This document shows positions 8,904-50,430 of a DNA stretch of 60,411 nucleotides, piece by piece (position 1 is the stretch's first letter; each line of letters starts with the position of its first letter). The notes beneath the pieces are model-generated. The model was not told where the DNA came from. It saw nothing but the letters and a program-made list of their open reading frames with translations, and did not search any database. The translations under genes were made by a program, and so were the position numbers. The stretch comes from an uncultured Gammaproteobacteria bacterium (GTDB taxonomy: Bacteria > Patescibacteriota > Patescibacteriia > UBA9570 > CAZNEH01): positions 1-60,411 of the forward strand of contig CAZNEH010000004.1 in NCBI GenBank assembly GCA_964572175.1, given 5' to 3'.

Positions 8904-9959
8904 TTATCTTAAAATATAAGCAGAAGAAGGACCCTTGCCTATTTGTTTGATTATTTTTATATCCTTAAGTTTTTTTAAGTATAACTGAGCGCTTCTTTTA
9001 GAACAGTTTAAAACATCCACTACATCGCTACTAGTAATTTTTCCCATTTGATCAAGCCATTCTAAAATTTTTAACTGATCAGGATCTAAATATATTTGAG
9101 ACTCTATCTTATCATCAACTTTTTTAAATTCTAAAGAAAAAACTTTATTTCTAACTTGGCTGATTTCTGCTTCAAATCCTTCTACAAAATATTCTAACCA
9201 AGGATTAAAATCAACTTTTCTTTGTTCGTATTTTTTACCTAAATTTATAGCTTCATAATAAGCCGGACGATTTTTATTGTAGTAATCTTCTAAAGCAAAT
9301 AAGTGCCTAAAGTCATAGTCTCTTTTATAGAGAATTAAAGTAGCTAAAGCTCTCGCTGTTCTGCCATTTCCATCAGCAAAAGGATGAATGGCAGCTATTT
9401 CTTGATGGGCTATTCCCGCCATTAACACAGGACTCATTTTTTCTTTATTGCTTTGTTGAATCCATTTTATTAAATTTTGGCAAAGTTTTGGAATTTTTTT
9501 TGGTTTAGGACCCGTATAAACAATCTCCTGCGGTCGGCCAATCCGTCGCCTAACCACATGGACCATACCTTTACGATAGGCTCCAGATTGTTCTTTAGGT
9601 AAAGTTTTGGCTGTTACTAGTCTATGAATTTTTAATAAAACTTTTTCATTTATAACTTGTTTTTTTTGAACCACTTCCTCAATATAGCGCAAGGCTTTTA
9701 AATAATTTTGTACTTCATAGACATCACGCAGGGGAGCATCAACTTTTTGCTTACCTAAAACAGCCTCTACTTGTCTTAGGCTTAAAACATTACCTTCTAT
9801 TTGAGTAGAATTATGAGTCATTCTAATCAAGGCTTGGCGCTTAAGTTTTAATTCATTTTGCGGTAAAAGCTTAGCTTGGTCAATTGTTGCTCTAGCTTCA
9901 GAAATTAGACTCAAAAAATAGAGAATTTTATTATTTATTTGGTATTTTGGATTAAACAT
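8904..9959 (-). CDS. Fic family protein with C-terminal HTH
   Basis: HPFADGNGRTAR Fic motif, STQIEGN motif; likely start MFNPKY at 9959. Confidence 0.9.
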   Translation of the reverse strand: MFNPKYQINNKILYFLSLISEARATIDQAKLLPQNELKLKRQALIRMTHNSTQIEGNVLSLRQVEAVLGKQKVDAPLRDVYEVQNYLKALRYIEEVVQKKQVINEKVLLKIHRLVTAKTLPKEQSGAYRKGMVHVVRRRIGRPQEIVYTGPKPKKIPKLCQNLIKWIQQSNKEKMSPVLMAGIAHQEIAAIHPFADGNGRTARALATLILYKRDYDFRHLFALEDYYNKNRPAYYEAINLGKKYEQRKVDFNPWLEYFVEGFEAEISQVRNKVFSLEFKKVDDKIESQIYLDPDQLKILEWLDQMGKITSSDVVDVLNCSKRSAQLYLKKLKDIKIIKQIGKGPSSAYILR

Positions 9960-9988
9960 ATCTACTTTAATAATAGCATAAAATAAAT

Positions 9989-10009
9989 AATCGCGCAATA
10001 ATCGCGCAA
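9989..10009 (+). repeat. 21-bp direct repeat, left copy (AATCGCGCAATAATCGCGCAA)
   Basis: Identical copy at 11590-11610; a third ATCGCGCA unit at 10013-10020. Confidence 0.8.
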
Positions 10010-10027
10010 AATATCGCGCAATTAAAT

Positions 10028-10097
10028 AAAAAAAGCCCTCTTCCGCAGTTTACCTCGCCACAGCTTTAGCGGCGGCGGGTTCCCCGACGGAAGAGGT
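10028..10097 (-). terminator. GC-rich terminator hairpin of the 10119-10457 gene
   Basis: cctcttccg...cggaagagg stem followed by a T-run on the minus strand. Confidence 0.65.
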
Positions 10098-10118
10098 TGT
10101 TGGTTCTTGTTCTCCGAC

Positions 10119-10457
10119 TCAGATGAGCCAGCGAACGAACCGGACCAGCAGGTGCCAGGCGGTCCAGGTCTCTTCGTGCGAGATCCAGTAGGTGATGGCG
10201 CCGAGAACCAGCGAGGCGACGAAGGTGTAGAGGGGGATGTTTTCCCCGATGTTGTCGAGGAAGGCGCGCTTCAGGACTTGTCGCAGGGAGGGCCTAGCCT
10301 CCTTACGCAAGAAGGAGTAGGAGCTGCTGAAGTCGAGGAGCAGTCCGAGGCCAGAGAGGCAGAAGAGGATCAGAGAGATGACCCAGATCGTAGCCCCGCC
10401 GCAGAGCAGGAGTTCCTTGAGGTAGGGCCAGCAGAACAGGAAGGCATCAGTGAGCAT
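10119..10457 (-). CDS. GC-rich small membrane protein, unknown function
   Basis: ATG at 10457 preceded by GGAGG; C-ending codons; two hydrophobic segments; promoter TTGACT-17-TAAGGT on the minus strand near 10492-10520. Confidence 0.6.
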   Translation of the reverse strand: MLTDAFLFCWPYLKELLLCGGATIWVISLILFCLSGLGLLLDFSSSYSFLRKEARPSLRQVLKRAFLDNIGENIPLYTFVASLVLGAITYWISHEETWTAWHLLVRFVRWLI

Positions 10458-10602
10458 GGGGTTTTTCCTCCCCCGGTTGAAGTTCACTTAAACCTTATAA
10501 TTATTAACCTTTCTAGTCAAGGTGATTACCCTTGACATTTTAGATATTTTATGACAAAGTAGGCTCACCCCCCCCCCACTGCCCTCAGAAAGGAGGCACC
10601 TG

Positions 10603-11508
10603 ATGACTATGTCCCGTCCCCCCTCGCAGAGCGACGAGCACTTCGAGTACCAGATCTACGGGGATCACCACGAGGCCACACACTGCATCGTGTTCCTGCA
10701 CGGTACCCTGCTCAGCAGCTTCGGCATGTTCACGGGCCGGCAGATCAGCCAGCTCATCGCCATGGCCGAGCGAGACCTGGGCCACAAGGTCTGCATCCTG
10801 GCCTTCACCAGGCCCGGGTACGGCCACCCCGAGATCGAGAACACCACCGTCGACTTCGGGTTCATGGCTCGCCGCTACGCCGACAAGATCCGCAAGCTGG
10901 GGTTTACCCCCCTGGCCGTGATCGGTCACTCCGGTGGCTCCCTGACGGCTCACTACCTGGCCCTCCGGCTTCACCAGAGCTACCCGGACATCCGTCTGGT
11001 CCAGATCGCCCCCACCTGCGCCAACGACGTCCTCAAGTACCACCAGTTCCAGGGCAAGCTCAAGTTCCAGTGGATCCGCGACCTCTTCAGCAAGTGGCCG
11101 CTCCTGCCCCGCCTGCTGTCCTGGTCCATCGGCCAGCTCAACAAGCGCTCGGCCAAGACCCAGTTCGAGACTTGGGCTCAAGGCGCTGACGAGTGGATGC
11201 TGAGCGATCCGGAGATGCGCGGTGGTCTGTCCGAGTCCATCCAGCGCTCGGCCAGTAACTCCCGCTGCGGCTGCGGCTTCCACCTGGACTACGAGGTCTT
11301 CGTCTCCCGGTGGCGCACCATGAAGCCCTTCCAGAACTCCCTGCTCCTGGGCTTCAGCGAGGACACCATTGTGCCCCCGGACATGGTTCGCTGCCTGGCC
11401 GACGAGGTCGAAGGTCGCTACCAGATCATGGACGGCGGCCACTTCGACGCCTGGCACCCCGAGAGCATGACCTGGACCACGGTCCTCGAGTTCTGCCTCG
11501 ACCAGTAG
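10603..11508 (+). CDS. GC-rich alpha/beta hydrolase
   Basis: FLHG, GHSGG nucleophile elbow, 'EDTIVP' acid, GGH His; strong SD AGAAAGGAGG. Confidence 0.8.
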   Translation: MTMSRPPSQSDEHFEYQIYGDHHEATHCIVFLHGTLLSSFGMFTGRQISQLIAMAERDLGHKVCILAFTRPGYGHPEIENTTVDFGFMARRYADKIRKLGFTPLAVIGHSGGSLTAHYLALRLHQSYPDIRLVQIAPTCANDVLKYHQFQGKLKFQWIRDLFSKWPLLPRLLSWSIGQLNKRSAKTQFETWAQGADEWMLSDPEMRGGLSESIQRSASNSRCGCGFHLDYEVFVSRWRTMKPFQNSLLLGFSEDTIVPPDMVRCLADEVEGRYQIMDGGHFDAWHPESMTWTTVLEFCLDQ

Positions 11509-11521
11509 GGTGCTGGTCCAC

Positions 11522-11579
11522 AACGACTCGCTGCGCGCGCACCACCCACGGTGCCGCGTAGCCAGTCGTTCTTTTTTTT
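11522..11579 (+). terminator. GC-rich bulged hairpin + T8, related to the cassette 3' hairpins
   Basis: aacgact-c-gctgcg...cgtagc-c-agtcgtt with internal CGCGCGCACC, followed by T-run. Confidence 0.7.
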
Positions 11580-11589
11580 GCTATAAAAA

Positions 11590-11610
11590 AATCGCGCAAT
11601 AATCGCGCAA
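11590..11610 (+). repeat. 21-bp direct repeat, right copy
   Basis: Identical to 9989-10009. Confidence 0.8.
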
Positions 11611-11626
11611 CCCATCCCGCAAAGAA

Positions 11627-23754: not shown

Positions 23755-24497
23755 AGAGTTTGCCAAATATATTCAAATATAGATCTATGAAATCTAGCTA
23801 CTTGTGGATGTTGAATATGAAAGGCCATTAAAGAATCTTTTTCCGCCACTAAATATAAAGCTTTGTCATCATAAATTTCTACCGCATTATCAAACGGATA
23901 CTTTTTACTATCTATAAATTTAACTTCAGTAAATTCTGGATTAACATTTTTAGCATGTTCCCTAGATACAGGGTTATCGACCATGATCATTTTCTTTTTA
24001 ATTCCCTTTCTAATTCTAGCTTTTACATATTTTTCATTAATCTCCTTTACATACTGGTCTACATTAGCGCTATTTACAAAAGTGTAAATTATTTCCTCAG
24101 TATTTAGAGAGTCATGCAAGGCTTTAGCATAAGATTCCTCTCCTTCATAAAAGGTAATTCCTGGCTTATTATTAGCTAAATTATAATCAGAAGTTAATTG
24201 TTTTAAATTAGCTTGAATAGTCTTTTTGGCTTGTTCTAGGTCTTTTTGTCTTTGTTCTACATATTCAGCTAATTTAGAAGGATGTTCTACCCTAAAATGG
24301 GCGATTTTGCCTTTATCATATTGTTCTACAAGCCCCTTTTTCACTAAATCAGCTAGTTTATTATACACATTACCCCTTTTTAAAGGGGTTTCTTTAATTA
24401 TGGCTCCTGCAGAACATTCACCATGTTCTAGCAAATATTCATAGATTAAGACCTCGTCTTGGTCTAGATCCGCTTGTTTTAGGATATCGCTATACAT
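23751..24497 (-). CDS. TrmB-family HTH transcriptional regulator
   Basis: 'E..IY..LL..G...AG.I.....RGNVY..L..L..KGLV' wHTH plus PLD-like C-terminal domain. Confidence 0.85.
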   Translation of the reverse strand: MYSDILKQADLDQDEVLIYEYLLEHGECSAGAIIKETPLKRGNVYNKLADLVKKGLVEQYDKGKIAHFRVEHPSKLAEYVEQRQKDLEQAKKTIQANLKQLTSDYNLANNKPGITFYEGEESYAKALHDSLNTEEIIYTFVNSANVDQYVKEINEKYVKARIRKGIKKKMIMVDNPVSREHAKNVNPEFTEVKFIDSKKYPFDNAVEIYDDKALYLVAEKDSLMAFHIQHPQVARFHRSIFEYIWQTL

Positions 24498-24707
24498 ATT
24501 AATAGGGGATTAATGTTTATTTCTACCTTAATTGTATCTTATTAATATGTATTTGTCAAGGAAATTTGACAAATAAGCCTATATTTTATCCACAATCATC
24601 TAAAATTATAATCATTATAAAACATAATAAAGACAATATAAGCCTAAATAATAACTCCCAAAATAGCCCTTTTTTGACTTAAATTAGCCAATATTTATCA
24701 CAACCTA

Positions 24708-24736
24708 TTGACAAAATATGAAACCTATGATAAGAT
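24708..24736 (+). promoter_or_regulatory. Sigma70 promoter upstream of the long structured leader and cassette array
   Basis: TTGACA-17-TAAGAT with extended -10 TG. Confidence 0.7.
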
Positions 24737-24742
24737 GTCTCG

Positions 24743-25450
24743 TCAAGATGAAACGCAAAGAGAAACTGGAGAAAAGCACACGAACATTACAACCTAGTAA
24801 GAGAGAGCCCAGACACTGATCCTGGGTAAACAAAAGATCAGTAGAACACGCATGTCTCTCTCGTTAACCCTTCGATACGATTTTCCTAAGGAAAATCACT
24901 CAGGGTGAAACAGTTATAGAGATATGCGTGTTCTTTTATAAAAAGGAGTTGATTAATAGAGAAGTAAACCAGAAGTAAAAGTAGAGAGATTACTTCCCTA
25001 GAAATTAAATCCTAGATTACTCTGGAATACCCAAGCCTCCTTATATAAGGCGGAACGGTAAACAACGAGTTAATCAAACGATGATTAGCAAATGAGGTTG
25101 AGAACAGTAAAACGTTTTCCCTCGCAACTACCAAAAGGTGGTTTGAGCAATCAATAGTGCACAGCTAAGTCAACTTCGGTTGACCTGGCTGGCGAGGTTC
25201 TAGGAGCGCTTGCCTAGGACTTCACCAGCCGGTTCCAGTAAATAAACGAAAGGCTACTATTCTAAATACTTCTTAAAGAGCAGGTCCAAGGTGTTGGACT
25301 AAAAGAAGGAACAGAGTAGAGGACATTGACAACTTAGTTCTCCCTAAGCTCATAACTAGATTATGTGTTTAGGGAGCATCACGAGAGACTACGGCTAAAC
25401 GCGCGTTCATCTGGGTTGTCCAGGTGCGTTCGTAAAGCAGAGTCTTTCGT
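24743..25450 (+). ncRNA. Candidate ~700-nt highly structured noncoding RNA or 5' leader
   Basis: Successive hairpins, e.g. 24843-24934, cUUCGg-capped 25162-25191, 25187-25230, 25339-25376, 25381-25450; G-U pairs favour + strand; no ORF >=60 aa in the track before 25365. Confidence 0.6.
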
Positions 25451-25470
25451 TATGTATCATGGAGTCATTT

Positions 25471-25818
25471 ATGACCAAGCTCATCAACCTGACCCCCCAC
25501 GCCCTCACCCTCCGTGCCGTCGATGGCACGGACACCACCATCGCCCCCTCGGGGACGGTGGCCCGGGTCTCCATGACCCCGGGAGTCAAGACCGAGGTCG
25601 AGGGGGTCCCGGTCCCGGTGTGGACCGCGGACGAGGTGGGGGAGGTCACCGGCCTCCCCGCCCCGCAGGAAGGCACCTTCTACATCGTCTCCGGCTTCGT
25701 CGGGTCGGCCTGCAAGGGCCGCTCCGACATCCTCGTCCCGGGCACCGGCCCCAAGGACGGGGCCGTCCGCAACGACCGCGGCCACATCCAGGCCGTGACC
25801 CGCCTCAAGCGGGTCTAG
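25471..25818 (+). CDS. GC-rich cassette A: NLTPH-motif protein, putative Crn4-like ring nuclease
   Basis: MTKLINLTPH...ARV...GLPAPQEGTFYIVS...R.D...P...R...G pattern, which I recall for the Crn4 family; GGAG SD. Confidence 0.6.
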   Translation: MTKLINLTPHALTLRAVDGTDTTIAPSGTVARVSMTPGVKTEVEGVPVPVWTADEVGEVTGLPAPQEGTFYIVSGFVGSACKGRSDILVPGTGPKDGAVRNDRGHIQAVTRLKRV

Positions 25819-25831
25819 ACGGTCACCCCTC

Positions 25832-26140
25832 CCCAGTCATGAGGCAACTGGGAATTCGGAGGACACCTCGCCTCACCCCTGGGAGCACGCGCACCGCACA
25901 CCGCGTGTCGCTCCCATCCTTTTTTCCGCTCAGTATTTCTGCGAAAAATAAACATAGCGCAGCCAAATAGTGAGCGTAAATAAGGATTCTCACATCCTGA
26001 CCAGTAAAGGCCCTATCCACCCTTTGTGGATGCGCGTTCTTCCCAGAGCGCAGAGTGGAGCCACACTGACTGGTAAAAAATCTTGACCCCCCACGGGTCC
26101 CGGGTTCATGAGCCTTTACTCTCGAAAGGAGCAAATCATG
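25832..26140 (+). repeat. Divergent copy of the inter-cassette structured module
   Basis: Pseudoknot 25832-25875, GGGAGC..GCTCCC hairpin 25881-25915, hairpin 25916-25987, multibranch motif 26000-26074, SD GAAAGGAG. Confidence 0.8.
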
Positions 26141-26503
26141 TCCAAGTCCAACAGCGTCCCCACCGCCGCCGAGGAGGCCAAAAGCCTCTTCGAAGAGACG
26201 CTCCCCACCCTCCCCACCACCATCAAGAACGGGGTCGAGCGCCCCGTCTTCCAGTTCGAGGAGTTGAAGGAGGACGGGTCCGTTTGGGTCCACTCCGGAG
26301 CGGATGGCGTCCCCCCCCGAAAGATCGGTTCCATCGGGGAGCCGATCGAGGAGATCATCCCCGACAAGATGATCTCCTCCCTGATCTTGGAGGATGGCGG
26401 GGCCGGGGGGCTCCCCTCCGAACCACAAAAGTACCGGACCTCCGTGGCCCGGCAGCTCCGCCGGGAGCTGGCCGAGAAACTCCTCGCCATGTGCGAGGAG
26501 TAG
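26138..26503 (+). CDS. GC-rich cassette B: acidic hypothetical protein
   Basis: GAAAGGAGCAAATC-ATG start; C-ending codons; MSKS N-terminus. Confidence 0.7.
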   Translation: MSKSNSVPTAAEEAKSLFEETLPTLPTTIKNGVERPVFQFEELKEDGSVWVHSGADGVPPRKIGSIGEPIEEIIPDKMISSLILEDGGAGGLPSEPQKYRTSVARQLRRELAEKLLAMCEE

Positions 26504-26504
26504 T

Positions 26505-26796
26505 GCCTAGTCCAGGCCTAAGACACGTCTGGTGAAAAAAACAACTGTCTTCAGACGGGAGCCCGCGCATCGCACACCGCGCCGGTTCCCATCCTTTTTT
26601 ATTTTCATCATCCAGCATGGTGAACATAAATAAGGATTCTCACATCCTAAACCAGTAAAGGCCCTATCTCACACCTCGCGAGATGAGCGTTTCCTAGAAA
26701 CGCAGAGTGGAGCTACACTGACTGGTTAAAAATTAGACCCCCTCGTGGGTCCCGGGTCATGATCCCGGTTACTCTTTGAAAGGAGATATCATGTCC
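26505..26796 (+). repeat. ~290-bp inter-cassette direct repeat, copy 1
   Basis: Near-identical to 27027-27317, with differences only in the first ~40 nt. Confidence 0.95.
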
Positions 26797-27024
26797 CAAT
26801 CCATCGCCACGTCCCCCCGCCCCCAGTCCACCCCCGTCCGGTGCGCGCAGTGCGTGCATTGGGTTGAGAAGATGGGGGGCTTCGGCCTCTCCGTCTCCGC
26901 CAAGGAGAAGGGATTGAAGTTTTGCCTCGGCCAAAGGGCCGAGGCCTTCACTATGGGGATGGAGGACGCCTGCGTCCTCACCCCGCCAGACCACTTCTGC
27001 GCCCTGGCAAAAAAGAAGGAGTAA
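26791..27024 (+). CDS. GC-rich cassette C: small Cys-rich protein (77 aa)
   Basis: GAAAGGAGATATC-ATG; CAQCVHW...C...C...C. Confidence 0.65.
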   Translation: MSQSIATSPRPQSTPVRCAQCVHWVEKMGGFGLSVSAKEKGLKFCLGQRAEAFTMGMEDACVLTPPDHFCALAKKKE

Positions 27025-27026
27025 GC

Positions 27027-27317
27027 GCCTAGTCCAGACCTAAGACACGTCTGGCGAAACAAAAACTGTCTTCAGACGGGAGCCCGCGCATCGCACACCG
27101 CGCCGGTTCCCATCCTTTTTTATTTTCATCATCCAGCATGGTGAACATAAATAAGGATTCTCACATCCTAAACCAGTAAAGGCCCTATCTCACACCTCGC
27201 GAGATGAGCGTTTCCTAGAAACGCAGAGTGGAGCTACACTGACTGGTTAAAAATTAGACCCCCTCGTGGGTCCCGGGTCATGATCCCGGTTACTCTTTGA
27301 AAGGAGATATCATGTCC
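27027..27317 (+). repeat. ~290-bp inter-cassette direct repeat, copy 2
   Basis: Near-identical to 26505-26796. Confidence 0.95.
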
Positions 27318-27686
27318 AAGTCCATCAACACCGCCGCCCTCGCCTCCCTTCTCGCCCCCTGGTTCGCCAGCGGCGAGGACGAGGATATCCCGACCGGATG
27401 GGAGGTCGAGGGGGCTTACGAAGAGCCCCATCGCGTCCCCCGTGTCCACGGGGAGGTGGACGGAAACCGGATCTACTGCGTAGATCCGGAGGACCACTGC
27501 CCCTTCTGGCTGGTCTGGGGGGGACCGGGAGAAATCCCGGAAAACCTGTTCCACAACGACACCGCCCTCGAGGAGCGCCACGAAAAGCTCCTCGAAATCG
27601 GCAATGCCCTCGGGGGATGGCGAGAGTGCGAGGGGTGTGGAGAGTGTGTCTCAGTGGGGGAGGTATGCCCCCATTGCGGACAATAG
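27312..27686 (+). CDS. GC-rich cassette D: acidic protein with C-terminal zinc ribbon
   Basis: GAAAGGAGATATC-ATG; CEGC...CPHC at the C-terminus. Confidence 0.7.
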   Translation: MSKSINTAALASLLAPWFASGEDEDIPTGWEVEGAYEEPHRVPRVHGEVDGNRIYCVDPEDHCPFWLVWGGPGEIPENLFHNDTALEERHEKLLEIGNALGGWRECEGCGECVSVGEVCPHCGQ

Positions 27687-27697
27687 GCGCACCCAGC

Positions 27698-27830
27698 CCA
27701 GACCTGAGCATGTCTGGACACAAACAAACAACTGTTCACCTGGAAGCGTGCGCCTTGCACCGGCCGCGCTTCCATCCTTTTTTCTTTCCATTACTCTTTC
27801 TCTCTCTAGAGTAGTGGAGGGAAAAAAGAG
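27698..27830 (+). terminator. 3' module of the last cassette: pseudoknot + GC hairpin + U-tract hairpin
   Basis: ccagac/gtctgg stem, loop tgagca pairs tgttca; tggaagcg...cgcttcca then T-run; ccattactct/agagtagtgg. Confidence 0.7.
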
Positions 27831-27888
27831 GAGAACTAAGTTGATTTAAGGCAAAAAATATGCTATACTTAATAAGTAAAATAAAAAA

Positions 27889-29007
27889 ATGACACAAATA
27901 AGATATTTTGAACAAAGTGGGGGATACTACCCTATTTTTATTACTAAAGACTCTGGAGAAGAATTAAGAATTGGAGCAGCCTCAAATTATTGGGGAAGCG
28001 TAACTCTAAGAAAAGAGTTTGACCAATTAAACCCCCAAGAGCAGCAAGAGGTTATTAGACAAATAAAAGAAAAAGTTATTACCCCGGAACAATGCGCCGA
28101 GATCAATTGGCAGAAAACAGAAAAAGATTCAAACATTACAGATTTACGACAAGATTTAACCATTTTAAAAACGTCTGGAACAACCCTAGAGCATAGTTCT
28201 AACGTATATGATAGGCACGCAACATCCGGATATTCCCCGGATGAACGACGCGGCCCAGTGTCTTACACTAAGCAAGTACGTGTCCATAAGTTGTTAATTA
28301 AAGATAAGAAATTAGAGACTATTGGAAGTTTTCGCTTTTATGGATCTCCGGATAATCTGGAAGAAGTTAAGCAAGGATTATTAAGTGAAAAAGAAGCTAC
28401 ATTAAAAATGCTGCTGTCGCAAAGAGAGAAAGTTACAAACCCTTCCTTAGATCCTAGGATTCATGAAGACTTATCTCCGGAAGAATGGAGTCAAAGATAT
28501 AAAGAACGTTTTGATGCTTTATTTCAAGAGGCACTTTCTCGATGGGAGGCCGAAGATCAAGCAGCTAGAGGAGAGCAGGAATTAAAAATACAAGAATATC
28601 AGAATGCGGTTGAAGTATTAAAGGAACTGGTGCTACAAGCAGAGGAAAAAAAAGAGGAAATAAAAAAGAAAGCTCATTTTACCGATCATCCTCAATTTCC
28701 TTATACTGATTTTCGTTCTTTGGACATGATTATATTTTTTATAGATAGAATTAAAAAATATTTAGCTGATTGTGATCAGGCCATCCTTGAAGCTGAAAAA
28801 AAGGAAAAAGAGCTGGAGCCGGAACCAGAACTTCCTTCTTCTGAGCCGAATGAGCCCGTAGAGCCAGATCCCGAACCTGAGCCTAAAACTTATCAGCCTC
28901 CTAAAGAAGCGCTTAGCTTTAACGCTCTGCAAGCTGCTTTTGGCGGAGCCGCTAAGATGGACAGAAAACCCAGGAAGAAAAGAGGTAAGAAAAATCGTAG
29001 AAGATAA
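27889..29007 (+). CDS. Hypothetical charged/coiled-coil protein with Pro-Glu linker and basic tail
   Basis: 372-aa ORF with AT-rich codons; TATACT upstream. Confidence 0.6.
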   Translation: MTQIRYFEQSGGYYPIFITKDSGEELRIGAASNYWGSVTLRKEFDQLNPQEQQEVIRQIKEKVITPEQCAEINWQKTEKDSNITDLRQDLTILKTSGTTLEHSSNVYDRHATSGYSPDERRGPVSYTKQVRVHKLLIKDKKLETIGSFRFYGSPDNLEEVKQGLLSEKEATLKMLLSQREKVTNPSLDPRIHEDLSPEEWSQRYKERFDALFQEALSRWEAEDQAARGEQELKIQEYQNAVEVLKELVLQAEEKKEEIKKKAHFTDHPQFPYTDFRSLDMIIFFIDRIKKYLADCDQAILEAEKKEKELEPEPELPSSEPNEPVEPDPEPEPKTYQPPKEALSFNALQAAFGGAAKMDRKPRKKRGKKNRRR

Positions 29008-29016
29008 TTTATAATT

Positions 29017-30594
29017 ATGAACGAACCATCATTTAAACCAGGCCCTGTTTTAGAACAGCAACCTAAATTAGACATATCTCTAACCGCAGAAGAAGAGGCT
29101 ATTTTAAATAATTGGCCGGAGCGCCCGGAGTTAACTCCTCGGCAAATTATTCATAAAACTCAAGACCGTGAACAAACCTGCGGACAGGCAGTTTTTAATC
29201 TCGATCCTCGTTGGCAGGAAGTAAAAGTAAAGTATGATTTTGAAAACCCAGAAGACTTAGATTATTTTGCTGATGATCATGTTCGAGGGATCAATAATAA
29301 TTTTTGGCGAGCCGATGGACGACGTAAAGCCGGTCGTGATGATCGGAATTTATTATTAGAATTAGACGACGCTCAACAAGCAGAGCGTCAAAGATTAGAA
29401 AGATTATTTAGAAAAAGATTAACAGAAATTAGAAGAATTAGAGCCAGGGTCTTTGCTGAACATCAGCCTCCTTGTCCGACCGAAGCTGTTTTTAAATTAA
29501 TTAAAGGAGGACAATATTTTGAATATAACGATTTTGAAGAACCCTCTCCATTTAGCCATGTAAGCTCGGGATATGGTAATAAACGTGTTAGAGTTTCTAC
29601 TTCAGCATACTATGGTTATGTTGCCGGAAAAGAAGTGTTATCTGAACAAGAAATAGTTTATTTCCCAAAAGATGAAACCGATAAGCTCGGAGACTTAGAG
29701 ACTTCTCTTGAAGAAAGAGAGAAAATAGTCGCCGCCGCTAAAAAGGCAATCCAGAGCGAAGAGGTGCAAGCTCAAGTAGCTGCTTTAGCTAGGAATTCTG
29801 ATTTTAGGCAGGCTGCAGAAGCAAAAATAAAAATACAGCAAAAGCGTTATCATGATTTTTTAAACCACCCAGTTATTAGAAGAATTCACGATGCTGAGAA
29901 GCAGGCTCAGGCTAATTTAGATCAATTTGAAAAAGTAAAAATCTCTGTAAAAGTTAAACTTCATAAAGAAGGTCAAGCAATATCTCCTGAACAATCTGTG
30001 TTACAGGCTAGCCCCGTGCGGCCAGAAAAAATGGATCGTTGCTATCAAGTTCCATCTAGTGAAATAACCATCTCTCCAGCAATTAAAAAATTATTAGATT
30101 CAGTTCCAGAGACTCCTCCTTCCGCTCCTCCAAAACCAGAAAAACCTAAGCAACCAGAAATTACTCCCGAACAAAGACAAGAGATGGAAGAGTTGTATGA
30201 TTTAATTCAAGAAATCGCTCCAGTATACCAGCCAAGAGTAGACAAAGTAACAGATAAACGGACTAAAAGCCAGTTAAATACTCTTTTAAGCGGAGTAGCT
30301 AACGCTGCTTATGATTTAAGAGATCCTCAAGAATATAATCCAAATAAATTAAGAGGATTAAGGCAGAACATAGCTCAGCTAGACAAAAAATTAAGATTCC
30401 CAGAAAATTGGCTTGAATTATATCAAAATCTTAAAAAAACAATGGCTGAAAATGAAGATTTAAGAAGTTATTTTAACCAAGAAGAAGCTATTCAAAAATT
30501 TATTAACCACTGCTTACAAGAAATTTTAGCCAAAAGGCTAACTATTATTAACGAGGATAATCTATTAGAAATACTTGATTCTTACGAATTTTAA
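29017..30594 (+). CDS. Hypothetical helical protein
   Basis: 525-aa ORF in operon with the previous gene. Confidence 0.6.
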   Translation: MNEPSFKPGPVLEQQPKLDISLTAEEEAILNNWPERPELTPRQIIHKTQDREQTCGQAVFNLDPRWQEVKVKYDFENPEDLDYFADDHVRGINNNFWRADGRRKAGRDDRNLLLELDDAQQAERQRLERLFRKRLTEIRRIRARVFAEHQPPCPTEAVFKLIKGGQYFEYNDFEEPSPFSHVSSGYGNKRVRVSTSAYYGYVAGKEVLSEQEIVYFPKDETDKLGDLETSLEEREKIVAAAKKAIQSEEVQAQVAALARNSDFRQAAEAKIKIQQKRYHDFLNHPVIRRIHDAEKQAQANLDQFEKVKISVKVKLHKEGQAISPEQSVLQASPVRPEKMDRCYQVPSSEITISPAIKKLLDSVPETPPSAPPKPEKPKQPEITPEQRQEMEELYDLIQEIAPVYQPRVDKVTDKRTKSQLNTLLSGVANAAYDLRDPQEYNPNKLRGLRQNIAQLDKKLRFPENWLELYQNLKKTMAENEDLRSYFNQEEAIQKFINHCLQEILAKRLTIINEDNLLEILDSYEF

Positions 30595-30633
30595 ATTTTT
30601 TACCCAATATTAGCCAAAATACAACAAGCACCC

Positions 30634-31593
30634 CGTAAATTAGTCAAGACCTTTGCACCACTTCCAGTGGTGTTTGGTAGTTTATTCCCATGTGTAATCT
30701 TTCAGTATTGTAATAATGCAAATACTCATTTATCTTCCTGTTTAACCAGGGAGTATTATTCTTGTATTTAATAATTTCATCTCTCATCTCTTCTTGAATA
30801 GTTCTATTAAATCTTTCAACATGAGCATTGTCGTTAGGTTTTCTCACTCTAGAATGTCTATGCTTTATTCCAATGGGCTCAACCATAGAGGTGAAATATT
30901 TTGAGAACTCAGGGCCATTATCAGATTGAATACATCTAAAGTTAAAAGGAGTGTTTTTCCTAGCTTCTTTAAACGCTTGTAAAGAAGAATAAGTATTCAC
31001 TCTATTCATGGCTTTAGCCTGGGCCCACCTGGAATGACAATCTATTAAAGTAAAGATATAAACATTGTTTTTATTACTTTTTGGTATGTGAATAGTATCT
31101 AGTTGTCCTAAGTCCCCAGGTTTAGCTATTTTAGGACGCTTTATGTTTTGATGATACTTTTTCCAAGGAGAACGCTTTTTAATTAAACCATATTTGTCTA
31201 AGGTTCTTTTAACTGTAGAAAGACTTACTTTAATTCCTTCTCTTTTAAGTTGAGCGTGAACTATTTGAGCACATCTATTTCTTTTTAATCTTACTTCTAA
31301 TATTCTTTTTATTATTTTCTCATCTGTAGCTCGAGGGGATGTTTTGGGCCTAGAAGATAAAGTTGGAATTTCATAAATTGTGCAAGTAGATGGAGACTTC
31401 TGCAACCAACGTACCACACTAGAATGAGATACTCCAAAGTGTCTAGCTACTTTTCTAGTGCTCCAACCTTTATTTTTAACTAACATAACTGCTTTTGCCC
31501 TGACCTTGGGCAAATAGGGATTTGTTGTATATGGCATATGATTTATCATACCTTAAAATAGGTTAGGTGGTGCAAAGGTATTGAACCATTACG
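30634..31593 (-). mobile_element. IS481-family insertion sequence, 960 bp, 6-bp TSD GCACCC
   Basis: Imperfect terminal IRs (cgtaa..tcaagacctttgcaccac / gtggtgcaaaggtattga..ttacg); GCACCC at 30628-30633 and 31594-31599. Confidence 0.85.
30644..31537 (-). CDS. IS481-family DDE transposase
   Basis: HTH N-terminus; QLDT, QSDNGPEF, NAHVERFNRT, YNTERLH; likely start MPYTTNP. Confidence 0.9.
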   Translation of the reverse strand: MPYTTNPYLPKVRAKAVMLVKNKGWSTRKVARHFGVSHSSVVRWLQKSPSTCTIYEIPTLSSRPKTSPRATDEKIIKRILEVRLKRNRCAQIVHAQLKREGIKVSLSTVKRTLDKYGLIKKRSPWKKYHQNIKRPKIAKPGDLGQLDTIHIPKSNKNNVYIFTLIDCHSRWAQAKAMNRVNTYSSLQAFKEARKNTPFNFRCIQSDNGPEFSKYFTSMVEPIGIKHRHSRVRKPNDNAHVERFNRTIQEEMRDEIIKYKNNTPWLNRKINEYLHYYNTERLHMGINYQTPLEVVQRS

Positions 31594-31599
31594 GCACCC

Positions 31600-31628
31600 T
31601 TGACAAAAGCTTATTTTTGTGCTAGGAT
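31600..31628 (+). promoter_or_regulatory. Sigma70 promoter for cassettes E-F
   Basis: TTGACA-17-TAGGAT with extended -10 TG. Confidence 0.7.
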
Positions 31629-31673
31629 GTTTAGTCAGTTTCACCTGTTCTTTCCCCCAAAAAACCAAGGCCC

Positions 31674-31710
31674 CATGAGCCTGCAACTTAGAAAGGAGCA
31701 AATCATGTCC
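31674..31710 (+). repeat. 37-bp translation-start repeat (CATGAGCCTGCAACTTAGAAAGGAGCAAATCATGTCC)
   Basis: Identical at 32827-32863; related at 26107-26143. Confidence 0.9.
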
Positions 31711-32688
31711 CAGTCCACCTCCATCGCCACCATCATCGTCACCCACGGCGGTGAGTTCCACGCCGACGACGTGTTCTCCGGAGCAGTGCTCTCGGCCCTG
31801 GCCCCCGAGGCCGAGGTCGTCCGCACCCGCGACGAAGAGTGCTTGTCCTCGGCCACCTCCGAGAACGGCCCCATCGTCTTCGACGTCGGCGGCGACTACG
31901 ATGCCACCCTGCGCAACTTCGACCACCACCAGGAAGATGGAGCCGGCACCCGCCCCAACGGCGTGCCCTACTCCAGCTTCGGCCTCATCTGGCAGTACTA
32001 CGGCCGCCTGTACCTGGTCAAGGTACTGGGTAGCGAGCTCAACCTCGACTACAGCGACCTCCACAAGATGGTCGACGAAGACTTGGTCCAGGGCATCGAC
32101 AGCATCGACACCGGTGCGGTCGTCAACCCGTACTTCCAGCCCCAGATCAAGGACAACGAGGTTTCGGTCGACGTGTCCACGGTCTCCAAGGCCGTGTTCG
32201 CCATGAACCCCCAGCCCTTGCTCGGCGACCAGGACTACGACTCCGAGTACCTCCAGGCCGTGGCCGTGGCCCAGTCCCTCCTCCAGGGTGTGGTCAAGGC
32301 CTGCGCCGCCAAGCTGCTCGGCAAGACCCTCATTAAGTCCGGCCGCCGCTTCACCGACCGCATCGTGGTCGTCGAGGAGAACGTCCCCGAATGGTGGAAG
32401 ATCGTCTCCGACCCGGACAGCGGCTTCTCCGAGGCGCTCTACTACCTCGAGCCGGACCAGTCCACCCCCGGCGCCTGGATGATCTGGTTGGTCCGGAAGA
32501 CCCCCGACACCTTCGAGGGCCGCAAGTCCCTGCCCGCCGCCTGGGCCGGCAAGCGGGGTGGGGAACTGGACCAGATCACCGGCCTCACCGGCTGCGTCTT
32601 CGTCCACCCCGGCCGCTTCGTTGGCGGGGCCAAGGACCTGGACACGGCCATCGCCATGGCCAAGCTGGCCATCGAGATCGAGGACTAG
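31705..32688 (+). CDS. GC-rich cassette E: MYG1-family (UPF0160) exonuclease/phosphoesterase
   Basis: THGGEFHADDV, VRTRD, DVGG, FDHHQ, SSFGLIW, FVH motifs. Confidence 0.9.
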   Translation: MSQSTSIATIIVTHGGEFHADDVFSGAVLSALAPEAEVVRTRDEECLSSATSENGPIVFDVGGDYDATLRNFDHHQEDGAGTRPNGVPYSSFGLIWQYYGRLYLVKVLGSELNLDYSDLHKMVDEDLVQGIDSIDTGAVVNPYFQPQIKDNEVSVDVSTVSKAVFAMNPQPLLGDQDYDSEYLQAVAVAQSLLQGVVKACAAKLLGKTLIKSGRRFTDRIVVVEENVPEWWKIVSDPDSGFSEALYYLEPDQSTPGAWMIWLVRKTPDTFEGRKSLPAAWAGKRGGELDQITGLTGCVFVHPGRFVGGAKDLDTAIAMAKLAIEIED

Positions 32689-32715
32689 CATCTGAGCCCG
32701 ACAGGATCGGGCTCC

Positions 32716-32810
32716 GGGAGCCGCGCGCACCGTGCCTCACGTACACCGCGTGCCGCTCCCATCCTTTTTCCCCTTCATTATTCTAAAAAATAGTGAATGG
32801 AAAAGAGGAT
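32716..32810 (+). terminator. Cassette GC hairpin plus U-tract-sequestering hairpin
   Basis: GGGAGCCGCGCG...CGCGTGCCGCTCCC ATCCTTTTTCC ... GGAAAAGAGGAT. Confidence 0.7.
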
Positions 32811-32857
32811 TTCCCCTCAAGGCTTTCATGAGCCTGCAACTTAGAAAGGAGCAAATC

Positions 32858-33193
32858 ATGTCCGTCAACCGTTACTTCAATACCGCCCTCGGCCTTAGCA
32901 TGCTTCCGGACGGCGAGTTCTCCGTCCAGACCATTACCCCCGAGGCCGCCGCGGCTTGGCTGCTGGAAGGTCACCAGAACGTGGCCAACCCCAACCACAG
33001 CAACTCCCTGCAGGCCATCACCCAGAAGATCGACGTCGACATGCGCGACGCCAAGGGCGGCCGCATCACCCTCGAGCCGGGCGATCAGTGCTTGGTGGCC
33101 CAGATCGGCGGGATTCCCCGCGAGACGCGGGAGTTCACAGACGAGGAGATCGCCGCGGCCACCTTCACCTTCCGGCTGGTGACCGTCAAGTAG
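32858..33193 (+). CDS. GC-rich cassette F: divergent DUF1874 (AcrIII-1/Crn2 ring nuclease-like) protein
   Basis: By-eye colinear match to STIV B116-type proteins: NTALGLSML, NPNHSNS (His), RITLEPGDQCLV, PRETREFTDEEI, FTFRLV; 111 aa. Confidence 0.65.
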   Translation: MSVNRYFNTALGLSMLPDGEFSVQTITPEAAAAWLLEGHQNVANPNHSNSLQAITQKIDVDMRDAKGGRITLEPGDQCLVAQIGGIPRETREFTDEEIAAATFTFRLVTVK

Positions 33194-33220
33194 TCACCGC
33201 CTCCGCACCTTCTTCCCTCC

Positions 33221-33265
33221 GGGAGCCGCGCGCAACACCCCGCGCGCCGCTCCCTCTTTTTATTT
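33221..33265 (+). terminator. Cassette GC hairpin terminator
   Basis: GGGAGCCGCGCG...CGCGCGCCGCTCCC + T-rich tail. Confidence 0.75.
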
Positions 33266-33321
33266 ACCTCGAGCTTAGTCGAGAGGTTTGCAAAAACTTT
33301 TTTTTGTGTTATAATAGGTCC

Positions 33322-33915
33322 ATGCCAATCAAAAAAATAGACGCTAAACTAAGGTCTACGCCTTATATTTCCTTTATTTGGGAAGTTACTAAGGTAGTAG
33401 TCATTTCTTTAGCTATTATCATTCCGATTAGATACTATCTAATCCAACCCTTTTACGTTCGCGGCGCCTCTATGGAGCCGAATTTTTATGATTACGAATA
33501 TTTAATTATTAATGAAATTGACTATCGTTTTAACTCTCCGGAAAGAGGGGACGTAGTTGTTCTTCACGATCCTCGTGATTCATCTCAGTATTTTATTAAA
33601 CGCATTATTGGTCTTCCTGGTGAAGACGTGGAAATCAAAGATGGTGAGGTAATTATTTATAACGACGAAAATCCAAGCGGTATTACCCTGGAAGAAGGGG
33701 AGTATCTTTCAGATTACGTAGACACTCGCGGTCCGCAAAAAATCTGGCAAATGGATGAAGACGAATATTTTTTAATGGGCGACAATCGTGATGCTAGCTT
33801 AGACTCTCGTGTTTTTGGAGAAGTCCATAAAGAAGAATTTATTGGCCGTGCCTGGCTCCGCGCTTGGCCTGTTACTCGTGCGACTAGCTTCGAAGATATT
33901 AATTATAATTTATAA
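33322..33915 (+). CDS. lepB: Signal peptidase I
   Basis: GASMEP Ser, IKRIIGLPG Lys, MGDNR..SLDSR; ATG 6 nt after TATAAT. Confidence 0.92.
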   Translation: MPIKKIDAKLRSTPYISFIWEVTKVVVISLAIIIPIRYYLIQPFYVRGASMEPNFYDYEYLIINEIDYRFNSPERGDVVVLHDPRDSSQYFIKRIIGLPGEDVEIKDGEVIIYNDENPSGITLEEGEYLSDYVDTRGPQKIWQMDEDEYFLMGDNRDASLDSRVFGEVHKEEFIGRAWLRAWPVTRATSFEDINYNL

Positions 33916-33920
33916 CTTAT

Positions 33921-35297
33921 ATGCCTAGACCAAAGAAAAAAACAACCACTGCTAAGCCTAAAAAAACAGAAGAAAAAAAATCTTCTCCTAAAAAAAATAT
34001 CCAACTTCTTAAAGGAATGAAAGATATTATGCCTCAAGAGCAGGCTTACTGGAACATGATCCGTAAAAAAGTAGAAGAATTTGCTAGAATTTATGGCTTT
34101 GAACGCTTAGACACCCCTGTTTTAGAGCAAACTTCTTTATTTGTTAAAGGAACTGGTAAGCACACTGATATCGTAGAAAAAGAAATGTTTTCTTTTGAAG
34201 ACCAAGGCGGAGAAAAAGTTAGTTTACGCCCAGAGTTTACCCCTGGTTTTTCTAGGGCCTATATCGAACACGGCATGCTTAATCAACCTCAACCAGTAAA
34301 ACTATTCACCATTGGTCCAGTTTTTAGACACGATAAGCCTCAGGCCGGTCGCTACCGACAATTTTACCAAATGAACTTTGAAATTATTGGCAGTCACCAA
34401 CCAGTAGTTGATGCTGAGTTATTATCTTTACAATATTTCTTATTCAAAGAAATTGGCTTAAATGTTTCCTTGCAAATCAACAGTGTTGGTTGTCCAGATT
34501 GTCGACCTCAATACAAGCAACTTCTACAAGATTATTATCGCAACAAAAAAAGAAATCTTTGTGAAAACTGTAAAAAACGTTACACCAAAAATCCGTTAAG
34601 ACTTTTAGATTGTAAAGAAGAAGTGTGCCAAGAACTAGCTCAAGACGCTCCTCAAATCGTCGACCATCTTTGCGAAGATTGTCGCGAACACTTTGTAAAA
34701 GTCTTAGAACACCTAGATACTTCCGACATTCCTTATACTTTAAATGCTAAAATCGTTAGAGGTCTTGATTATTATTCTAAAACTGCTTGGGAAATATATC
34801 CTATTATTAAAGGAGAAGAAAAGAAAACCTCTCAAGGTGCAGTTTCCGGAGGCGGGCGCTATGATGGCTTAATCGAACAATATGGAGGCAGAGAAGAAAC
34901 CGGAGCCTGTGGATTTGCCGCTGGTATTGAACGATTAATCTTAGCCTTAAAAGACGAAGGAATTAAACCACCAGAAGCAGAACCAGTAGATGTCTTTTTA
35001 GCTCAGCTAGGTGAAACTGCTCGTAAAAAATCTTTACAGCTTTTAGAAGATTTACGCCAAAAAGGATTTCAAGTTCGCTCCAACTTAACTAAAGAAAGCT
35101 TAAGTAGTCAGTTATCTTTAGCTAATAAGCTAGGGGCTCGCATTACTTTGATCTTAGGTCAAAAAGAAATGATTGATAACACTATTTTACTTCGAGACAT
35201 GGAATCCGGAGCTCAAGAAATTATAGACTTAAATAAAATTGAAAAAGAACTTACCAAAAGATTAGCTAGTATCAAAAAAGAAGAAGAGACAAAATAA
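33921..35297 (+). CDS. hisS: Histidine--tRNA ligase
   Basis: KGMKD, LRPEFT, FRHDKPQAGRYRQF, VRGLDYY, GGGRYDGL. Confidence 0.97.
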   Translation: MPRPKKKTTTAKPKKTEEKKSSPKKNIQLLKGMKDIMPQEQAYWNMIRKKVEEFARIYGFERLDTPVLEQTSLFVKGTGKHTDIVEKEMFSFEDQGGEKVSLRPEFTPGFSRAYIEHGMLNQPQPVKLFTIGPVFRHDKPQAGRYRQFYQMNFEIIGSHQPVVDAELLSLQYFLFKEIGLNVSLQINSVGCPDCRPQYKQLLQDYYRNKKRNLCENCKKRYTKNPLRLLDCKEEVCQELAQDAPQIVDHLCEDCREHFVKVLEHLDTSDIPYTLNAKIVRGLDYYSKTAWEIYPIIKGEEKKTSQGAVSGGGRYDGLIEQYGGREETGACGFAAGIERLILALKDEGIKPPEAEPVDVFLAQLGETARKKSLQLLEDLRQKGFQVRSNLTKESLSSQLSLANKLGARITLILGQKEMIDNTILLRDMESGAQEIIDLNKIEKELTKRLASIKKEEETK

Positions 35298-35638: not shown

Positions 35639-35679
35639 CATTAAAACTGGGAAGTGTTATAGTAATAGCATCATTGAAA

Positions 35680-35785
35680 ACTCTTCGATACAATTTTTCC
35701 TTCGGAAAAATCACTCAGAGTATTTACGATGATTGTTAAACCTTGAGTGATCCTGAGTAGCCCGCAAGGGCATATCGAAGGATCG
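35680..35785. repeat. Pair of REP-like elements (CTTCGATA...ACTCAG family) in the rpsU leader
   Basis: cttcgatacaatttttccttcggaaaaatcactcag and inverted ctgagtagcccgcaagggcatatcgaag; related copy at 24870-24903. Confidence 0.6.
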
Positions 35786-36562: not shown

Positions 36563-36601
36563 AAAGTAAGGATAACCCTAGGGTTGTCCGTAAATAAAAA
36601 T

Positions 36602-50414: not shown

Positions 50415-50430
50415 ATAAATAATTAAAAAT

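Follow-up and report, generated by a model that had tools for sequence, protein, structure and literature searches.

GC-rich arrays of ring-nuclease-family genes behind structured RNA leaders: candidate counter-defence cassettes in an AT-rich Patescibacteria-type chromosome

Why should an AT-rich, Patescibacteria-type chromosome carry short arrays of very GC-rich small genes, and on what might their products act? The question is raised by contig CAZNEH010000004.1 of assembly GCA_964572175.1 (genome G000, contig C4), the whole of which, 60,411 nucleotides, is the window analysed here. The genome is a 51-contig metagenome draft of 1.075 Mb with a GC content of 0.378, a completeness of 98.3% and a contamination of 0.42%. 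Scored in 300-nt pieces, GC content is 0.65–0.72 at positions 25400–27800 and 31700–33200 compared with 0.28–0.40 around them. The first of these islands holds genes A to D (array 1) and the second holds genes E and F (array 2). With a probability of about 0.55, we read the islands as horizontally acquired, moron-like counter-defence arrays that are expressed by the resident cell.

By family, gene A is a predicted Crn4b-type ring nuclease. In the PDB it matches Crn4b (9r7b) over residues 1–96 with an E value of 8.3e-6, and Crn4a (9sma) at 0.011. It is also recovered by the PADLOC profile Unk_01 (2.9e-20) and by PHROG 21731 (2.4e-21), and it resembles proteins in 22 phage records at 32–41% identity. 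The available text of PMC12830947 gives T13, H15 and R112 as the active-site residues of Crn4, reports that the enzyme cuts polyA RNA too, and places Crn4b in phages and plasmids, where it is probably an anti-CRISPR. The NLTPH of gene A aligns with the NLTPH of Crn4b, and the Crn4 arginine (R112) falls outside the aligned stretch. Gene A lies outside a type III CRISPR locus, as do the phage and plasmid (Acr-like) members of the family and unlike the cellular Crn4.

Gene F, taken alone, scores 19.5 bits (E 0.0011) against the Pfam family STIV_B116-like (PF08960), under the 26-bit cut-off, and reaches 7.8e-5 with PADLOC Csx16. A family profile made of 40 sequences out of the 75 homologues found matched AFV3-109 (2j6b, 3.1e-6), 2x4i (3e-5) and STIV B116 (2j85, 8.7e-5) in the PDB, and also AcrIII-1 (6scf, 1.3e-3) and a Csx1–Crn2 fusion (8y7f, 3.5e-3). 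H47 of gene F is nearly invariant in the family and aligns with the GH of 2j6b and 2x4i; His-47 is the general acid of AcrIII-1 according to the accessible part of 10.1101/778746. A tblastn search of phages with gene F returned no match. To judge from its sequence, gene F is a member of the DUF1874 (AcrIII-1/Crn2) ring-nuclease family that keeps the catalytic histidine.

Gene E is predicted to encode a full-length MYG1 phosphoesterase. It scores 209.5 bits against PF03690 (cut-off 22.1), covers profile positions 2–318 of 318, and matches the MYG1 exonuclease 24ah in the PDB at 8.5e-34. Its nearest relatives are proteins named Patescibacteria (50% identity) and Ca. Uhrbacteria (46%), in a clade with support of 100/100, and the gene was found in none of 40 relatives of the genome. 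Two or three of the six genes, or more, look like enzymes that destroy the alarm molecules on which CRISPR-type immunity relies. For the orphans, gene B has no Pfam, PHROG, NCBIfam, PADLOC or PDB match, while gene D found no homologue in a word search of 5.8 billion proteins and, in the PDB, nothing beyond a weak likeness to the bL32 zinc ribbon (E 0.0099).

A profile search of the genome for a cognate signalling system found no Cas10/Csm1 (TIGR02578), Cas1 (PF01867) or SMODS/CD-NTase, and control genomes were positive. Among ten other Patescibacteria that bear ring nucleases, the Cas10 cut-off was reached in none; five of the ten carry weak N-terminal (HD-region) Cas10 matches of 26–31 bits in open reading frames (ORFs) of 510–541 residues. 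Since no such signalling system was found in the carrier, the likely target is the immunity of another cell. The content of the arrays, ring nucleases in a genome where Cas10, Cas1 and SMODS were not found, is compatible with action on another cell's immunity, and to that extent with the host-directed effector system that the first-pass annotation of this DNA had proposed.

The cassettes are written in a dialect unlike that of their surroundings. GC content at third codon positions (GC3) switches abruptly from 0.21–0.28 in the resident genes beside the arrays to 0.78–0.97 in genes A to F, and C at that position (C3, 0.49–0.67) exceeds G (G3, 0.28–0.36) in all six. Genome-wide, GC3 is bimodal over 1071 non-overlapping ORFs; 118 islands (109 kb) exceed a GC content of 0.55, some of them being tRNA or rRNA pieces, and about 70–100 genes, ~10% of the genome, are GC-rich. 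For counting, the GC-rich class was restricted to ORFs of at least 70 residues and purged of those with GC1 >= 0.8 or GC2 >= 0.55 as likely wrong-frame, which left 70; the AT-rich class, with a floor of 100 residues, numbered 827. Genes A to D fell outside the GC-rich class because longer antisense ORFs overlap them in the output of a greedy ORF picker, and they were examined separately. Starts preceded by a Shine–Dalgarno (SD) sequence make up 87% of the GC-rich class (61/70) compared with 26% of the AT-rich class, where the reversed-sequence background is 28%. The sequence TTGACn-N16–18-TAnnnT occurs within 250 nt of 49% of the former and 9% of the latter. The main stop codon is TAG in GC-rich genes (54/70, 77%) and TAA in AT-rich genes (604/827, 73%), and third positions are distributed over C, G, T and A as 0.48/0.31/0.13/0.08 and 0.14/0.13/0.38/0.35, respectively. 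These counts bear out what had been claimed from the letters alone, namely an abrupt change to GC-rich, C-ending codons in the cassettes, many resident genes that look free of SD sites, and two distinct ways of writing genes.

Codon optimisation for the resident cell was considered and rejected. Ribosomal-protein genes and the gene for EF-Tu are AT-rich (GC3 0.14–0.29), so the dialect is not an adaptation to the resident's optimal codons. Missing translation parts were likewise rejected: the 3' end of the 16S rRNA carries a canonical anti-SD sequence, the 39 tRNAs include GNN species for C-ending codons, and release factors RF1 and RF2 are both encoded. The cell is therefore equipped to translate the cassettes, and none of their features calls for the foreign translation system suggested earlier.

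Transcription signals point to the resident cell as well. The promoter-like sites P1 and P2, annotated as AT-rich sigma70 promoters, each carry a TG extension and agree with the consensus of 151 TTGACA-N16–18-TAnnnT sites across the genome, at the level of a motif match. P1 is followed by a 734-nt leader with a minimum free energy of −244.2 kcal/mol, compared with −175.3 ± 7.0 kcal/mol for 20 dinucleotide shuffles (z −9.9); resident coding stretches, used as a control, fold at z about −0.7. No Rfam match at gathering scores was obtained in the window, and a search of 24000–34000 at E values up to 5 gave chance-level matches only.

Genes within the arrays are joined by reused sequence. Genes C and D begin with GAAAGGAG-N5-ATGTCC and genes B, E and F with GAAAGGAG-N6-ATGTCC, and likeness around the motif reaches into codons 2–4 (MS[KQ]S); gene A is without it. 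The motif previously described for B to F is thus present in all five, although the N5 spacing given for it holds in C and D only. Spacer A–B is 82% identical to spacer B–C over 173 nt and contains the diverged copy at 25967–26131. The repeat pair 26536–26823 and 27057–27344 is 96% identical without gaps and 98.6% identical by blastn, and 31674–31704 equals 32827–32857 over 31 nt, or 37 nt when ATGTCC is included. A 3' module, a GC hairpin followed by an AU-rich hairpin that includes a T-run, is common to all six genes and opens each spacer, at the other end of which stands a strong SD site. RNAalifold gives the module 31 pairs, and for ten of these one or more copies show compensatory changes. 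The spacer reuse and the family of GC hairpins reported by the first-pass annotation are therefore upheld, with the AU-rich hairpin as an addition, and the folding scores and compensatory changes agree with its notion of a common structured-RNA chassis. Within the genome this chassis is confined to the two arrays, and array DNA was found in none of 400 other Patescibacteria. With blastn, 25380–33300 matched no phage or plasmid record, and the genes and spacers thus do not recur there as one block, a possibility that had been raised. A search elsewhere with the hairpin pattern gave no match. The SD-block pattern was met in 29 IMG/VR contigs, which were rejected as chassis relatives; they have no further spacer sequence in common, so these matches are chance-level.

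Table 1. Features of the two arrays and of other elements in the window (GC and GC3 given for genes)
Feature	Position	Strand	GC/GC3	Description
Promoter-like site P1	24708..24736	+		TTGACA-N17-TAAGAT + TG extension; 10/12 match, motif only
Structured leader, array 1	24737..25470	+		734 nt, ORF-free (longest ATG ORF 23 aa); fold z −9.9
Gene A	25471..25818	+	0.72/0.97	115 aa, putative Crn4b-type ring nuclease (PDB, PADLOC, PHROG matches); TAG stop
Spacer A–B	25819..26137	+		Two-hairpin 3' module, three-way-junction element, SD; fold z −5.3
Gene B	26138..26503	+	0.65/0.90	121 aa, orphan; TAG stop
Spacer B–C	26504..26790	+		287 nt; fold z −5.6 (200 shuffles); 98.6% identical to C–D
Gene C	26791..27024	+	0.63/0.87	77 aa, Cys-rich orphan; no family or PDB match
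Spacer C–D	27025..27311	+		Near-identical copy of B–C
Gene D	27312..27686	+	0.64/0.78	124 aa, orphan with C-terminal CxxC...CxxC
3' two-hairpin module, array 1	27687..27836	+		RNAalifold module; resident-type promoter-like site next, at 27841
IS transposase (HTH + rve)	30644..31549	−		AT-rich; Pfam rve_3 1.9e-15, rve 2.1e-13; abuts array 2
Promoter-like site P2	31600..31628	+		TTGACA-N17-TAGGAT + TG extension; 10/12 match, motif only
5' untranslated region of E	31629..31704	+		Ends in 31-nt SD block common to E and F
Gene E	31705..32688	+	0.66/0.94	327 aa, putative MYG1/UPF0160 DHH-type phosphoesterase; Pfam PF03690 1.2e-61
Spacer E–F	32689..32857	+		Two-hairpin module, then shared SD block
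Gene F	32858..33193	+	0.65/0.90	111 aa, putative DUF1874 (AcrIII-1/Crn2/Csx16) family member; profile homology, catalytic His
3' two-hairpin module, array 2	33194..33306	+		RNAalifold module; signal-peptidase promoter-like site at 33287
Third GC-rich island	9988..11620			112-aa membrane protein (−) and 301-aa alpha/beta hydrolase (+), divergent; GC3 0.92, 0.87

Similar layouts recur in other genomes. Among the 400 other Patescibacteria, MYG1 is present in eight, the F family in eight and the A family in six. In three of these genomes (G041, G094 and G388), a TTGACA promoter is followed by a long, ORF-poor leader and then by small genes, GC-rich and SD-led, one of them for a ring nuclease. The G041 locus (L034, labelled Ca. 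Magasanikbacteria) holds Csx15 (1.6e-7), MYG1, an NDK-like gene and small zinc-ribbon proteins behind an 815-nt leader (z −12.9). G094 (L138) and G388 (L140) each hold a Crn4-like gene, behind leaders of 1023 nt (z −17.4) and 1222 nt (z −12.9), respectively. No sequence likeness was detected among these three leaders and that of array 1, and L034 contains no Rfam family. In a metagenome locus (L154), an F relative of 75% identity likewise forms a cassette of GC3 0.94 between AT-rich flanking sequences. By eye, a hammerhead-like core can be made out at about 560–625 of this locus, in the spacer just upstream of the nearest F homologue, and another metagenome contig with an F homologue has a type III hammerhead candidate (L156:4725–4779; 46.4 bits, slightly below the Rfam gathering score of 48.5 bits, E 5e-7). 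Related cassettes also show in-frame stops, a TGA near the start of the G041 MYG1 gene (L034:2935–3945) and a TAG in the F homologue of G352 (L123, C17:6297–6632); these could be signs of a pseudogene, sequencing errors or read-through.

Hairpin elements of other kinds were seen in the genome. A hairpin motif of ~40 nt, CTTCGATAC..TTTTCC..GGAAAA..TCACTCAG, occurs four times and has no Rfam match; the sites are 24865–24910 and 35679–35721 in the window, C14:25773–25810 and C17:17825–17870, two of them directly after consensus promoters. Several other GC-rich genes (C21:3389, C17:2569, C21:2297, C1:87727 and C32:1471) are preceded by AT-rich 5' leaders of 100–300 nt with a GTTCTTTAATAT-like beginning, in which a long hairpin directly follows the predicted start site; the C32 leader also holds a GC-rich upstream ORF of 27 residues.

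When 20 further GC-rich proteins of the genome, chosen from ~70, were compared with Pfam, four gave a match at E <= 0.001 and two, Crp-like and PNP_UDP_1, were above the curated cut-off; PADLOC recognised none of ten. The third GC-rich island of the window has an internal AT-rich promoter region and a terminator hairpin at either end. A direct repeat of ATCGCGCAA-type units, 21 nt exact and about 32 nt overall, flanks the island at 9988 and 11589, and the whole looks like a discrete insertion with a duplicated target. Among 77 islands, this one alone has a flanking repeat clearly beyond a shuffled-pair null, so a general mechanism of insertion through attachment sites or target-site duplication was rejected. 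Beside it lies a candidate Fic-type protein (8904–9998, minus strand) with a HPFADGNGRTAR motif read by eye. Further along, at 36584–43237, the window encodes a 2217-residue protein with an N-terminal T4SS_pilin domain and TIG and Big_5 domains, followed downstream by two FG-GAP repeat proteins at 48357–52536; to judge by their domains, these could possibly belong to a surface or attachment apparatus. The rve-family insertion sequence (IS) lies directly upstream of P2, the promoter-like site of gene E. A single Logan contig joins 30672 to 31566 without the IS, a weak observation with 27 nt on the shorter side, and the IS may be polymorphic in the population.

In the reading that we prefer, each array would be transcribed as one RNA, from P1 or P2. 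The GC hairpin with its T-run would be a leaky terminator or would stabilise the 3' end, and the folded spacers would serve in RNA processing or stability. The products, made by the resident ribosome, would degrade the cyclic or linear oligoadenylate signals of type III CRISPR or of immunity resembling CBASS (cyclic oligonucleotide-based antiphage signalling systems) in another party. This party might be the host cell of this episymbiont-type bacterium, or cells passed through by the cassette pool. The cassettes would stem from a gene pool common to Patescibacteria and mobile elements, its GC-rich members having a TAG-rich, C3-rich dialect, and would have arrived too recently for amelioration.

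That the cassettes may be exchanged and not native, as first annotated, is supported by the absence of gene E from the 40 relatives and of the chassis DNA from the 400 other Patescibacteria. High-GC genomes prefer TGA stops. Given this preference, taken here as general background, the dominance of TAG speaks against a typical high-GC bacterium as the donor. A Patescibacterium of 65% GC from the same class (G039) comes close to the cassette dialect, with TAG at 66 of 117 stops, C3 0.44 and G3 0.36, which favours exchange inside the phylum over formatting for a host. As a donor type, it fits in stop codons and third positions and does not fit in SD use. A mirror image was seen in the same genome, AT-rich patches of promoters and genes at about 78380, 86387 and 133358 of its contig C1 (L145, L146 and L148). 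The available text of PMC12455944 puts horizontal gene transfer at up to 13% of Patescibacterial genome length, mostly from other Patescibacteria.

Several points weigh against our reading. In G039, SD starts are not enriched (35% vs 38% in the control), so that the SD habit of the cassettes is unexplained by such a donor. P1 and P2 are AT-rich and of resident rather than donor style, G039 promoters having GC-rich spacers. In the collections searched there was no near-identical donor, the best matches being 50% for gene E and 70% for the HutU of another island, whose named matches are from Myxococcales, 'Deltaproteobacteria' and Fermentibacteria. The amino-acid shift of the GC-rich class is mild (Ala 0.077 vs 0.065), below what the relations of GC1 and GC2 to GC3 lead one to expect of genes that have long been part of a genome of 65% GC. 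A Crn4-X-HD-MYG1 cluster in another genome (G244) has native composition, and GC-richness is therefore not required for function. F-family genes exceed the median GC content of their locus in nine of 11 metagenome loci, equal it in two and fall below it in none, a one-sided excess not expected of random transfer; in seven of eight genome loci, the top 200-nt GC bin is theirs. Genes B, C and D have no family match on which to base a function. Finally, the search for signalling covered Cas10, Cas1 and SMODS, and CARF, SAVED and TIR parts were not searched for.

How do other explanations fare? Assembly chimerism or contamination, the former already raised in the first-pass annotation, is barely credible. 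The genome is a metagenome draft of 51 contigs and word depth is unequal between Logan contigs (13.6 vs about 5–9, a difference that is not interpretable), but contigs of run X1 bridge all four AT/GC junctions (24000–26572, 27288–28497, 30880–31703 and 32834–33939). Run X1, a seawater metagenome, is probably the sample from which the genome came, so this bridging represents a second assembler and not independent reads. The 118 small islands lie inside AT-rich contigs throughout the genome, the contamination estimate is only 0.42%, and promoters of resident type are located at the junctions. It is also decidedly improbable that old resident genes became GC-rich in place, through selection for expression or GC-biased conversion of recombining cassettes. 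The one-sided GC excess of the F family, the mild amino-acid shift and the nature of the changes TAA to TAG, NNT to NNC and NNA to NNG, each a third-position transition, would suit such a process. However, the most highly expressed genes are AT-rich, gene E is absent from the relatives, the best HutU matches lie outside Patescibacteria, and biased conversion leaves the excess of C3 over G3 and the SD habit unexplained. A nucleotide-salvage role, in which the ring nucleases and MYG1 break down oligonucleotides taken up from a host or the surroundings for a cell without nucleotide synthesis, appears unlikely to us. It draws on the exonuclease family of MYG1, the NDK-like cassette in L034, two PNP-family genes in the GC-rich class, the polyA cleavage noted above for Crn4 and the native-composition Crn4–HD–MYG1 cluster of G244. 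Against it, Crn4 and DUF1874 are cyclic-oligoadenylate specialists in every tested case covered by the accessible text of PMC12830947 and 10.1101/778746, and with 6–8 carriers among 400 other Patescibacteria the genes are too patchily distributed to form a core salvage route.

We consider it improbable that the arrays are decaying cargo, leftovers of an integrated phage or plasmid anti-CRISPR locus without a present role. Crn4b and DUF1874 are phage and plasmid anti-CRISPR families, the IS abuts array 2 and appears polymorphic, and the related cassettes of L034 (MYG1, TGA) and L123 (F homologue, TAG) contain in-frame stops. Yet all six reading frames are intact, genes A and F keep their catalytic motifs, and consensus promoters, SD sites and compensatory hairpin changes indicate maintained function; no phage or conjugation genes were found nearby in the ORFs scanned. 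Still more far-reaching, and in our judgement very improbable, is the proposal that the cassettes are mRNA or single-stranded DNA cargo directed at, and written for, a GC-rich host, with the folds as export signals or single-strand promoters. A dialect opposite to that of the resident's highly expressed genes, strong SD sites and TAG stops, extreme leader folds, and anti-oligoadenylate content where the cognate system was not found are what such cargo would show. In addition, the accessible text of PMC13478746 describes plasmid leading regions whose anti-defence genes are GC-rich and codon-adapted, with single-strand promoters. However, there is no sign of transfer, the resident cell encodes all parts for translating the genes, the promoters follow the resident consensus, and a GC-rich Patescibacterium has a matching dialect. 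The arrays also have a chromosomal setting among housekeeping genes (neighbours LepB, HisRS, Der/EngA, LytR, FtsA and NrdD). None of ten large ORFs scanned encodes a relaxase or the ATPase of a type IV secretion system, and no PHROG structural match was found among the scanned neighbouring proteins, so the arrays do not lie within a recognised prophage.

Acquisition as counter-defence arrays expressed by the resident cell thus remains our preferred reading. It has a bolder extension, which we offer as a speculation with the odds against it: that episymbiotic Patescibacteria keep a mobile counter-defence arsenal against the cyclic-oligoadenylate immunity of their hosts, with the giant leaders as a new class of RNA and, in the boldest form, expression in the host after nucleic-acid transfer. 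The cassettes of this arsenal would be Crn4b, AcrIII-1/Crn2, Csx15, MYG1 and many orphans, all in the GC-rich, SD-led dialect with TAG stops and transcribed from consensus promoters, and the leaders, of 0.7–1.2 kb, would control, stabilise or even export the transcripts. Ring nucleases are known as off-switches of type III CRISPR and as virus and plasmid anti-CRISPRs; here they occur on the chromosome in ultra-small bacteria, and this genome and all ten other carriers tested lack Cas10 above the family cut-off. Episymbionts are reported to be targeted by CRISPR spacers of their hosts (Esser et al. 2023, cited by the accessible text of PMC12612501). If the enzymes neutralise a host alarm signal, this would be immune evasion by a cellular parasite, and our literature searches found no description of such evasion by ring nucleases. 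The dialect, TAG stops, C-ending codons and SD sites in an SD-poor genome, could mark effector-like genes in candidate-phyla genomes, and the recurring giant structured leaders are a candidate new family of regulatory RNA. The case is relevant, too, to the question of how foreign genes become connected to the transcription system of a recipient.

Among known systems, the arrays can be compared with viral and plasmid ring-nuclease anti-CRISPRs: genes A and F are assigned to these families, have their catalytic histidine motifs and lie apart from a type III locus. In contrast to those systems, they lie in a cellular chromosome with housekeeping neighbours and no recognised phage or plasmid, and their putative ring nucleases, whose activity is predicted from sequence, are arrayed with MYG1 and orphans behind large structured leaders. 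The anti-defence islands in plasmid leading regions, as described in the available part of PMC13478746, are likewise clustered on one strand, GC-richer than their replicon, equipped with strong expression signals and preceded by structured DNA or RNA elements. Here, however, no oriT, relaxase or conjugation genes were seen (ten large ORFs scanned), and codon usage is not the carrier's optimal one; the parallel with such GC-rich, expression-tuned islands is a suggestive analogy. The horizontally transferred islands of Patescibacteria occupy up to 13% of the genome according to the accessible text of PMC12455944, which compares with ~10% in GC-rich islands here. Its available main text contains neither 'promoter' nor 'codon', whereas the TAG/SD/C3 dialect, the ring nucleases and the structured leaders are features of the present case.

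Integron arrays also combine unrelated small genes in one orientation under one promoter with hairpin spacers, and spacer reuse in our arrays suggests recombination. They differ in that the present spacers are near-identical, carry SD sites and T-runs and, by eye, do not resemble attC. The first-pass annotation had seen no integrase, reverse transcriptase or attC site. This holds insofar as no IntI-type integrase or reverse transcriptase was found in the scanned ORFs (the window was partly scanned), but an rve-family IS transposase is present. The gene-capture array offered there as an alternative is thus without integron hallmarks. In Cluster K mycobacteriophages, start-associated sequences form a conserved SD-containing block upstream of many unrelated genes. 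Our arrays similarly repeat an SD block before unrelated genes, with the difference that it lies within a structured spacer of 170–290 nt and reaches codons 2–4. Phage morons, lastly, are independent promoter–gene–terminator units of deviant base composition, and by motif and fold the cassettes resemble them in having a consensus promoter, either private or shared, a terminator-like hairpin and deviant composition. Unlike morons, they are not in a prophage: the 1-Mb chromosome has ~70–100 such genes at scattered positions, and reused structured spacers chain several of them together.

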